From positions 1-25,601 of the forward strand of contig JAKQIG010000287.1 of assembly GCA_029557635.1 (NCBI GenBank): DNA of 25,601 bases, written 5' to 3'. This stretch comes from a bacterium. Lineage in GTDB: Bacteria; Muiribacteriota; UBA9980. Under the pieces are notes generated by a model that made no database searches, had not been told where the DNA came from, and saw nothing but the letters and a program-made list of their open reading frames with translations. A program made the position numbers and the translations under genes. Below, one piece after another: positions 21,591-22,562 of the stretch (the stretch's first letter is position 1; each line of letters opens with the position of its first letter).

Positions 21591-22562
21591 ATGAATTATT
21601 TTACAAGCACAAATTTTACGAATAAAAAATTCGTTAAAAAAACGATTTTAATTTTTCTCGCAGTTTTAACGGCGTTTTCATTTGCCGCTTTCTTTTCGAG
21701 CGGCATTTGCGAAGCGCGCGCCGGAAGGAGCGGAGGCTCGTCTTCACGCTCTTACAGTTCGTCTAGCAGTTATTCTAGCTACAGCCGCGGATATTCTTCG
21801 AGCAGTTACGGGCGCTCGGGTTACTCCGGATATTCTTCGAGCAGCCGCAGAAGCTATCCTTCTTCTTATGCGAGGGGATATTATTCGTCGAGCCGCGGCC
21901 ATTTTTCTTCGGCCATAATCCTTTTTTTCACCTTCATTATAATAGCCGTAATCGGCGTAATACATTTCCTGACTTCTAAATCATCTTCCGGTGGAACTTC
22001 TTTTTTCCCGTCTTCGTCGCCCGGCTTCGGAAGCGCTTCGTCATATCAGGGCGGCTATGGCGGCTCGTTCGGGGGTTCCGGACGCTCTTACGGCAGCCGT
22101 TCCATGGATATCGCCGACGTGCCCGAAGCGCCCAGAAACGACCTGTATGAATTAAAAGAACGCGTGAAGGAAGTATTCATGCGGGTGCAGGAAGCCTGGA
22201 GCGAGCGCGAGCCTTCATATGCCGAAAGCTATGTGAGCCAGAGGCTTTTTTACAAGCACCAGAGGCAGATAGAAGATATGCTGCACAAGCAGGAAAAAAA
22301 TATTTTAAAAAACATAAATATCATAGACGTCAAAATAGTAGAAGTCGCCGGCGGCGGAAACGGGCTCGAACCCGACGGTTACGGCGGCGGCGGACGCATG
22401 AAAACGATTATAAGGGCTTCAATGATAGATTATGTAATAGACGAAAACACCGGGCGCATAGTGGACGGCGACGAATACGCGCCGGACGAATTCTGCGAGC
22501 AGTGGAACTTCGTTTACGAAGATGACGGCTGGATCGCGGATGAAATTATATCCGGCGGTTAA
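21591..22562 (+). CDS. Membrane protein with S/Y/G/R-rich low-complexity regions flanking one TM helix and a C-terminal Tim44-like domain.
   Basis: Signal peptide/anchor, then SSRSYSSSSSYSSYSRGYSSSSYGRSGYSGYSSSSRRSYPSSYARGYYSSSRG. TM helix (AIILFFTFIIIAVIGVIHFL), then GGYGGSFGGSGRSYGSRS. The C-terminal ~150 aa (LYELKERV...WSERE...IIDVKIVEV...IIRASMIDYVIDENTGRIVDG...EQWNFVYEDDGW) has the Tim44-like/NTF2-like pattern. The internal nucleotide repeat GGATATTCTTCGAGCAG occurs twice; ORFs 21682..21918(+) and 21744..21965(-) are artefacts of it. Confidence 0.55.
   Translation: MNYFTSTNFTNKKFVKKTILIFLAVLTAFSFAAFFSSGICEARAGRSGGSSSRSYSSSSSYSSYSRGYSSSSYGRSGYSGYSSSSRRSYPSSYARGYYSSSRGHFSSAIILFFTFIIIAVIGVIHFLTSKSSSGGTSFFPSSSPGFGSASSYQGGYGGSFGGSGRSYGSRSMDIADVPEAPRNDLYELKERVKEVFMRVQEAWSEREPSYAESYVSQRLFYKHQRQIEDMLHKQEKNILKNINIIDVKIVEVAGGGNGLEPDGYGGGGRMKTIIRASMIDYVIDENTGRIVDGDEYAPDEFCEQWNFVYEDDGWIADEIISGG

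Follow-up and report, generated by a model that had tools for sequence, protein, structure and literature searches.

Purifying selection on a Ser/Tyr/Gly/Arg-rich low-complexity tail in a putatively type-I-anchored Tim44-like protein of Candidatus Wallbacteria

We studied a gene for a 323-amino-acid (aa) protein in a 25,601-nt stretch of bacterial DNA (contig JAKQIG010000287.1 of assembly GCA_029557635.1; here called the window), whose product carries two low-complexity domains (LCD1 and LCD2), made mostly of Ser, Tyr, Gly and Arg, on either side of a transmembrane (TM) helix. Comparison with orthologues showed that LCD1, as judged from its substitution pattern, experiences purifying selection no weaker than that on the folded domain of the same protein. 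The product appears to be a bacterial Tim44-like protein, from Candidatus Wallbacteria, with a type-I anchor, presumably in the N-out/C-in orientation and with LCD1 as an exposed sticky tail; for this reading as a whole, the role of the tail included, we estimate a probability of about 0.5. The protein is already listed as ‘TIM44-like domain-containing protein’ (HPG59048.1 / OQA77382.1, from a Candidatus Wallbacteria metagenome-assembled genome, MAG) and its family is uncharacterised; what is new here is the selection on LCD1. The order of parts is signal peptide, ARAG motif, LCD1, one TM helix, LCD2 and an NTF2-fold Tim44-like domain, the main ones being located in the window as follows:

21591..22562, + strand: coding sequence (CDS) of the Tim44-like membrane protein, 323 aa; an open reading frame (ORF) whose exact protein is present on 16 contigs
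21591..21722, + strand: predicted signal peptide, aa 1-44 (hydropathy; AlphaFold2, AF2, helix at aa 8-36)
21723..21905, + strand: LCD1, aa 45-105; 93% S/Y/G/R, predicted disordered, putatively extracytoplasmic
21906..21974, + strand: single TM helix, aa 106-128 (Kyte-Doolittle hydropathy up to 2.96; AF2 helix at aa 104-129)
21975..22106, + strand: LCD2, aa 129-172; 75% S/Y/G/R plus F/P, predicted disordered cytoplasmic tether
22107..22559, + strand: Tim44-like (NTF2-fold) domain, aa 173-323 (Pfam, AF2, Foldseek)

A scan of GTDB genomes retrieved an orthologue 88% identical to the window protein (locus L017), and the two aligned without gaps. Nonsynonymous and synonymous differences between both genes were distributed in this way:

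Signal peptide: 12 nonsynonymous, 3 synonymous; pN/pS about 1
LCD1 (61 codons, no indel): 1 nonsynonymous, 14 synonymous; pN/pS 0.02, pS 0.32
TM helix: 0 nonsynonymous, 5 synonymous; pN/pS 0
LCD2: 10 nonsynonymous, 10 synonymous; pN/pS 0.37
Tim44-like domain: 15 nonsynonymous, 33 synonymous; pN/pS 0.11

Fisher's test of LCD1 against the signal peptide gave p = 1e-4, against LCD2 p = 0.009 and against the Tim44-like domain p = 0.088. Similar values were obtained in a sister sub-clade, where the pairs of P0006 with P0003, P0007 and P0005 showed LCD1 pN/pS of 0.04, 0.01 and 0.09, respectively, with 0.09-0.11 in the domain and 0.18-0.24 in LCD2; the LCD1 alignments of these pairs contained 4-11 gap columns, corresponding to SYG-type units gained or lost. 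LCD1 is conserved like the folded domain and is therefore functional, not neutral filler or a hypermutable slippage tract. Constraint on LCD1 at the RNA level or from an overlapping gene was excluded, since synonymous sites vary normally and an Rfam search gave no match in the window.

Composition and, in part, position were also kept over larger distances. Within the Tyr-rich clade to which the protein belongs (domain identity 40-60%, gene GC content 46-61%), LCD1 was 54-117 aa long and consisted of 33-51% Ser, 15-20% Tyr and 10-17% Arg plus Lys, with almost no acidic or aliphatic residues and a net charge of +6 to +11; this composition was maintained despite the shift in gene GC from 46 to 61%. 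Two blocks at the ends of LCD1 kept their position across the clade, GRSGGSSSRSY and, on the membrane side, YRRSY(G/P)SSYG..GYY, the latter being the clade consensus of this element:

21846..21884, + strand: membrane-adjacent block RRSYPSSYARGYY, aa 86-98

Its residues R86 and Y89 were invariant in 9 sequences. LCD1 alignments scored above shuffled sequences because of these two end blocks; with the blocks removed, only the closest relative still scored above chance. The centre of LCD1 kept its composition and evenly spaced Tyr residues, and varied in length by gain or loss of SYG units. LCD2 kept its composition and hardly any positions.

The composition of LCD1 in the window protein is extreme: 29 Ser, 11 Tyr, 9 Gly and 8 Arg among 61 residues (93%; 19% Tyr and 13% Arg), without Asp, Glu or aliphatic residues, and with a net charge of +8 (about +0.13 per residue). 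LCD2 is rich in S and G, has an F or Y at intervals of a few residues and bears a net charge of +3. Ser, Tyr, Gly and Arg together make up 21% of the residues in the remaining long ORFs of the window; the binomial probability of finding at least 57 of them in 61 positions is 5e-34. A second S/Y/G/R tract of this kind was not found in about 190 kb of six-frame ORFs (the window plus fetched loci), and the LCD1-TM-LCD2 segment alone, used as a query, returned 8000 candidates, none of them at E <= 10. Disorder, TM helix and topology were judged from AF2 pLDDT values, simple hydropathy and charge counts, and prion character in the sense of PLAAC from Gln/Asn composition only.

An earlier note on this DNA (the original prediction) had described two prion-like, FUS-like segments of ~70 and ~35 aa flanking a TM helix. 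Two low-complexity segments on both sides of one helix are indeed present according to the ORF, its composition and its hydropathy, with measured lengths of 61 and 44 aa instead, and both are predicted to be disordered, with pLDDT below 50 at aa 47-100 and aa 131-170. The likeness to FUS-type domains holds for the spacing of Tyr, which in LCD1 was more even than in shuffles (p ~0.011), as in FUS-type stickers; the same was true for 9 of 11 clade members. Arg was spaced no more evenly than in shuffles, and the [GS]Y[GS] motifs of LCD1 (7 per 61 aa) were not clearly enriched over shuffles of the same composition (mean 4.2, p = 0.09). A prion-like, Gln/Asn-rich composition was absent from LCD1 (0 Gln and 0 Asn; LCD2 has 1 Gln). 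With no Gln or Asn, 13% Arg, a charge of +8 and [GS]Y[GS] motifs not clearly above the level expected from composition, LCD1 fits the name prion-like or FUS-like poorly.

Part of the DNA coding for LCD1 is repeated:

21788..21805, + strand: repeat copy 1, exact 18 nt CGGATATTCTTCGAGCAG, whose 17-nt core GGATATTCTTCGAGCAG encodes G-Y-S-S-S-S
21827..21844, + strand: repeat copy 2, the same 18 nt CGGATATTCTTCGAGCAG, in frame and 39 nt from copy 1

This repeat was longer than any repeat in 2000 of 2000 synonymous-codon shuffles, and a duplication therefore took place at the DNA level. It is the best-kept part of four degenerate units, 36-51 nt in length, each coding for approximately (R/G)(G)YSSSS. 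TRF revealed no real tandem array in the LCD1 DNA, only a 12-nt match (2.1 copies, score 36), and all six Ser codons are in use. Both 17-nt cores are kept in L017, and the 18-mer was absent from the more distant homologues examined. When repeat length was compared between strains, LCD1 had the same length in four assemblies and in L017; indels of units (SYG-type, gained or lost) were seen only among more distant relatives. On these patterns the 18-nt repeat goes back to an old duplication that has since diverged, and the tract is not undergoing active slippage. The expansion by slippage that had been proposed thus stands as far as the duplication and the gain and loss of SYG units in relatives are concerned; ongoing slippage is contradicted by the use of six Ser codons, the lack of length variants in the sampled strains and the alignment of 61/61 residues with the 88% orthologue at 14 synonymous and 1 nonsynonymous changes. 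The idea of a slippage array or hypervariable contingency tract was dropped on the same grounds (no TRF array, mixed Ser codons, constant length in close strains). As a separate observation, both GGATATTCTTCGAGCAG cores are free of synonymous changes relative to L017, with 14 such changes elsewhere in LCD1; a rough calculation gives this a probability of ~0.05, and either chance or gene conversion between the copies is possible.

The gene is preceded by two putative expression signals:

21534..21562, + strand: promoter-like site TTGATA-17 nt-TATAAT with extended TG; a consensus match only, at 11/12 positions
21580..21585, + strand: ribosome-binding site (RBS) AAGGTG, read from the sequence; the ATG lies 5 nt further on

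The promoter-like site was the top-scoring one within 21300-24000. An assembly error or a wrong frame in a simple repeat could imitate a tract such as LCD1, which is itself of low complexity and lies where other frames are also open. One frame, though, spans the RBS, the signal peptide, both LCDs and a domain with a significant Pfam match, and orthologues elsewhere keep the architecture, with divergence dominated by synonymous changes in this frame. The CDS at 21591-22562 is also nucleotide-identical in four independent assemblies (NCBI MAG GCA_022703765.1 and three JGI metagenomes); therefore the artefact or frameshift against which the original prediction had warned was ruled out, its probability being next to nil, and the frame is correct and the low-complexity region genuine.

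The C-terminal domain was assigned from several searches. Pfam PF04280 matched aa 184-307 with 45.2 bits (cut-off 29.6; E 1.4e-11), and the AF2 model, built from 25 sequences, had pLDDT above 90 in this domain. The top PDB matches in Foldseek were the Tim44 C-terminal domains 3qk9, 2cw9 and 2fxt, followed by the intermembrane-space domains of ARC6/PARC6 and by mL45, and a profile of the domain compared with PDB matched Tim44 only. Other Pfam/NCBIfam domains were not matched N-terminal to it. A Tim44-like domain had been expected and is confirmed by PF04280 and the fold matches; the ‘lipid-binding’ label of the family, as in the name ‘predicted lipid-binding transport protein, Tim44 family’, is inherited annotation. 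One loop is particular to the clade:

22347..22397, + strand: Gly-rich loop in the Tim44-like domain, AGGGNGLEPDGYGGGGR, aa 253-269; clade-specific insertion relative to distant relatives

This loop, inserted in the beta-sheet part of the domain and with pLDDT below 50 at aa 258-264, was found in 8/9 clade sequences (missing in P0008), and GLEP or SLEP was kept wherever the loop occurs. It constitutes a third low-complexity element of the protein. At the other end, the signal peptide has a Lys-rich n-region (K12, K13, K16 and K17), a hydrophobic core at aa 18-35 and a c-region A42-R43-A44 followed by G45, so that it overlaps a motif of the family:

21714..21737, + strand: family motif A-R-A-G-(G/R)-(G/S)-G-G, here ARAGRSGG, aa 42-49, preceded by ...CE

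R43, A44 and G45 were invariant in the clade and the A-x-A site was kept in all its members; cleavage would occur at this site.

Searches with the full protein are biased to shared low-complexity words, and the relatives found in this way all had a signal peptide, the ‘(A)RAGGG/RAGRSGG’ motif, a tract rich in S/G/R(/Y), a TM helix and a Tim44 domain. The search was repeated with a domain-only profile against 1.84 billion representatives, giving 5957 representatives (50% identity level) at E <= 1e-3; feature counts refer to the best 149 of these 5957. An N-terminal hydrophobic segment was present in 128/149; in 115/149 the consensus A-[LF]-A-R-A-G-G-G-G led into a Gly/Ser-rich stretch, after which came a TM helix. 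Tails with at least 12% Tyr occurred in only 9 of the representatives (14 with the close relatives of the query added), mostly close relatives of the query, and other tails at the same position were poly-Gly, G/S, (TYKPSTN)x8 or D/Y-rich. From these sequences, a low-complexity tail before the TM helix is the norm of the family and its Ser/Tyr/Arg flavour a clade-specific variant. The rarity in bacteria that had been attributed to such tracts was therefore overstated: in the bacterial Tim44-like family a Gly/Ser-rich tract is what normally occupies this position, and only the Tyr/Arg enrichment belongs to the clade.

Some family members differ in other ways. In P0097, P0114, P0144, P0151, P0152 and P0154 the sequence ‘LRAGGG’ lies 15-25 aa past the hydrophobic segment, and the motif should therefore be more than a signal-peptidase site. 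Relatives of 700-1100 aa, P0038, P0105 and similar, have between signal peptide and TM helix three to four tandem Hint/PT-HINT (intein-like) domains (...ARGGGGCF...VHNKGGCF...) together with a Cys-rich stretch, and also hold two Tim44-like stretches. At L015 (4193-5777) the distant relative P0010, with a Gly-rich tail, is in tandem with a second Tim44-like paralogue.

The more likely topology, and in our judgement the probable one, has LCD1 outside and the Tim44-like domain at the cytoplasmic face. It is supported by the n/h/c organization of the signal peptide with its conserved A-x-A site, and by the Hint domains and Cys-rich stretches that occupy the tail position in relatives. In 61/79 other family members K/R residues were more numerous in the 20 aa that follow the TM helix than in the tail (medians 5 vs 2). 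The Tyr-rich clade is reversed, its core members having 9 K/R between the hydrophobic segments and 0-2 after the TM helix; LCD1 thus violates the positive-inside rule and the topology of the clade is therefore uncertain. The original placement of one segment outside and one inside agrees with the signal peptide and the homologues, but is at odds with the charge of LCD1. This reversed charge would suit an inverted topology, with the Arg-rich LCD1 in the cytoplasm, providing the positive flank for a reverse signal-anchor, and the Tim44-like domain outside. NTF2-like domains are known in periplasm-equivalent spaces, and ARC6/PARC6 are the next-best fold matches, which would also suit it. Such an arrangement seems quite unlikely in view of the canonical signal peptide and A-x-A site, with 1-5 K/R before the core in most members (0 in P0002), the secreted-type modules (Hint, Cys-rich) that homologues carry at the LCD1 position, the lack of Cys pairs in the Tim44-like domain and the length of the loop, at least 61 aa, as SecA-driven export tolerates charge in loops of this length.

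Downstream of the Tim44-like gene we found a candidate partner:

22603..23865, + strand: ankyrin-repeat protein, 420 aa, probable operon partner (Pfam Ank_2, 1.9e-49)

The ankyrin protein is organized as an ankyrin block, one hydrophobic segment (aa 162-193), a K/S/P-rich linker and a second ankyrin block, a layout common to 6 orthologues; one ankyrin block is possibly extracytoplasmic. No terminator-like site was seen in the 40-nt gap between the two genes. An ankyrin gene was directly downstream, with gaps of 12-40 nt, in 8/9 loci of the Tyr-rich clade with DNA available, in two upstream contexts (truA or an ABC-F gene), and was absent downstream in the loci of distant Tim44-like relatives (0/~22). 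This linkage is suggestive of a partnership between both proteins.

Other neighbours were also inspected. A full-length homologue of major vault protein (MVP), 835 aa, is encoded at 18862-21369 of the window (- strand), divergently from the Tim44-like gene; it matched Pfam MVP_shoulder at 2e-26, and its aa 478-821 were co-linear with rat/human MVP 476-827 (E 1.6e-16). Bacterial homologues of MVP are already known (bioRxiv 10.1101/872010; PMC3762200). The MVP-like gene was rejected as a partner, being located between truA and the Tim44-like gene only here and missing at that spot in L005 and L006. Genes for NfeD-like and Band_7/flotillin-like proteins were present 2-4 genes downstream in four related genomes, L001 (14026-16302), L005, L006 and L013, a recurrence that may be general conserved synteny. 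Upstream of truA, at 11865-17957 of the window (- strand), are two hybrid histidine kinases of 918 and 1072 aa with PAS, HisKA, HATPase_c, receiver and Hpt domains, conserved in relatives.

We propose that the signal peptide would export the N-terminal tail and set an N-out/C-in anchor, and that LCD2, as a flexible tether, would keep an NTF2-fold docking domain close to the membrane. LCD1 would act as a polycationic, multivalent ‘sticky’ tail in which Tyr and Arg make contacts, Ser and Gly serve as flexible spacers and the two end blocks are specific motifs. Such a tail may have a specific binding target outside, be it the tail itself, anionic components of envelope or lipid, or the neighbouring ankyrin membrane protein, and through this binding the Tim44-like domain would be clustered or positioned. 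Among the outcomes of this multivalency, a liquid condensate is possible but unsupported, and a polyanion coacervate would be more plausible than a FUS-like homotypic droplet. A two-gene Wallbacteria module, in which the exposed Tyr/Arg/Ser/Gly tail is a sticker-and-spacer element that coacervates with anionic envelope or is read by ankyrin repeats, and so clusters Tim44-like docking domains, seems to us rather improbable in that complete form.

Three other explanations of LCD1 were weighed against the sticky tail. As originally envisaged, a membrane-tethered FUS-like protein would undergo liquid-liquid phase separation at the membrane through its [G/S]Y[G/S] tracts. The density of Tyr (11 in 61 aa, 7 of them within [GS]Y[GS]), their even spacing, the predicted disorder, and the conservation of composition and sticker number together with a centre free in position and unit number would all be in keeping with it. 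In prion-like low-complexity domains, higher net charge weakens phase separation and Arg is a possible auxiliary sticker (Bremer et al., bioRxiv 10.1101/2021.01.01.425046), so the residues of LCD1 speak on both sides: Arg could add stickers, and a net charge per residue of ~+0.13 without any Gln or Asn would weaken separation. Condensation is unlikely, moreover, for a segment that is probably extracytoplasmic, with only 61 + 44 aa of LCD per molecule, with a [GS]Y[GS] count not clearly above the composition expectation (p = 0.09), and with poly-Gly or Gly/Ser tails without stickers in most relatives. The single change in 61 codons at pS 0.32 suggests a specific interface over a purely compositional constraint. 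That positional selection is also what would be expected if the end blocks of LCD1, and perhaps LCD2, were linear motifs bound by the ankyrin blocks of the co-encoded membrane protein in a two-protein complex.

Ankyrin grooves bind extended disordered peptides, and the ankyrin blocks flank a hydrophobic segment, mirroring the LCDs that flank the TM helix. The adjacency of both genes in 8/9 clade loci and in two upstream contexts, its absence from the distant loci and the lack of a terminator-like site between the genes are in accord with such docking. We nevertheless regard it as doubtful, as the co-occurrence lies within one clade of otherwise conserved synteny, where shared ancestry is possible, and P0008 has no neighbouring ankyrin gene. 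A plainer explanation is that the exported tail merely orients the TM helix N-out/C-in and that both LCDs are flexible spacers whose composition drifted incidentally. Very different low-complexity flavours, and even Hint domains, are found at the same position across the family, and LCD2 is linker-like, with its composition kept, its positions not, and the highest pN/pS of the mature parts. For LCD1 this filler role is disfavoured by pN/pS values of 0.01-0.09, no higher than in the folded domain, at normal pS, by the absence of indels against the 88% orthologue, by a composition held over GC contents from 46 to 61% and by end blocks invariant across the clade; as an account of the whole protein it is very unlikely.

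Several points weigh against the sticky, exported tail that we prefer. The pN/pS values come from few substitutions, the comparison of LCD1 with the domain giving p = 0.06-0.09 in two pairs, and gapped alignments of low-complexity sequence can hide substitutions, from which the ungapped alignment of the window with L017 is exempt. The reversed charge bias of the Tyr-rich clade counts against the export of LCD1, and the net charge of +8 and the Ser-rich spacers argue against homotypic condensation. The linkage with the ankyrin gene is limited to one clade and confounded with phylogeny, and P0008 combines a Tyr-rich tail with the absence of an adjacent ankyrin gene. As to function, a literature search on the bacterial Tim44-like family gave passing mentions only and no experimental data on any member.

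Two points above all make the protein of interest: selection on its four-letter tail is unusually strong, and its linkage with an ankyrin gene is specific to the clade. If LCD1 makes multivalent Tyr/Arg contacts, the sticker-and-spacer grammar of eukaryotic RNA-binding proteins would also apply at the outer surface of a bacterial membrane; this would be the first case of a FUS-like interaction grammar in the bacterial envelope and the first functional handle on the large bacterial Tim44-like family (5957 representatives). Regardless of this, LCD1 shows cleanly that a low-complexity segment can be more constrained than the adjoining folded domain, and its selection pattern is a warning that such tracts should not be dismissed as filler or slippage noise.

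The protein can be compared with several known systems. The mitochondrial Tim44 C-terminal domain (3QK9, 2CW9, 2FXT) and mL45/Mba1 have the same NTF2-like alpha+beta fold; the likeness to Tim44 reached a Foldseek probability of 1.0 and a target-normalised TM-score of 0.57-0.58, with an identity of only 15-18%. As in Tim44, mL45 and Mba1, the domain would be placed on the side of an energy-transducing membrane that corresponds to the cytoplasm. In contrast to Tim44, the protein has no N-terminal Hsp70/Tim23-binding domain but a signal peptide and two LCDs ahead of the Tim44-like domain, its anchor is a real TM helix and not amphipathic helices, and nothing ties it to the Hsp70 import motor or the ribosome. 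Lacking the motor-binding domain, it is therefore not a Tim44 orthologue, although it belongs to the Tim44-like family by hidden Markov model and fold.

The low-complexity domains of FUS/FET and hnRNPA1 resemble LCD1 in evenly spaced Tyr (15-19%), Ser/Gly background and predicted disorder, and in conserving composition over position, as the LCD1 centre does. The FUS domain is Gln-rich and nearly uncharged, whereas LCD1 has no Gln or Asn, interspersed Arg and a charge of +8, lies outside any RRM/ZnF context, is only 61 aa long and probably extracytoplasmic, shows strong short-range positional conservation and is not homologous. The same four-letter alphabet was used in minimalist Tyr/Ser/Gly/Arg synthetic antibody paratopes from the Sidhu and Koide laboratories, in which most contacts reportedly come from Tyr, flexibility from Ser and Gly, and higher affinity, with a loss of specificity, from Arg; these loops were engineered on a folded scaffold, whereas LCD1 is a natural disordered tail, and the analogy is one of chemistry only. 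Among bacterial envelope proteins, the N-terminal region of CsgF from the E. coli curli system is reported to phase-separate (PMC10133297) and offers a precedent for an aromatic-dependent, self-associating disordered segment outside the bacterial cytoplasm; that segment is Phe-dependent and unrelated to LCD1 in sequence, composition and system. The bacterial Tim44-like family shares the full architecture of the protein studied here, which differs from the rest of that family in a Ser/Tyr/Arg-rich (19% Tyr, 13% Arg, +8) instead of Gly/Ser-rich tail, in a reversed charge bias around the TM helix (0-2 K/R per 20 aa on the C-terminal flank vs a median of 5), in the extra Gly-rich GLEP loop and in the linked ankyrin gene.

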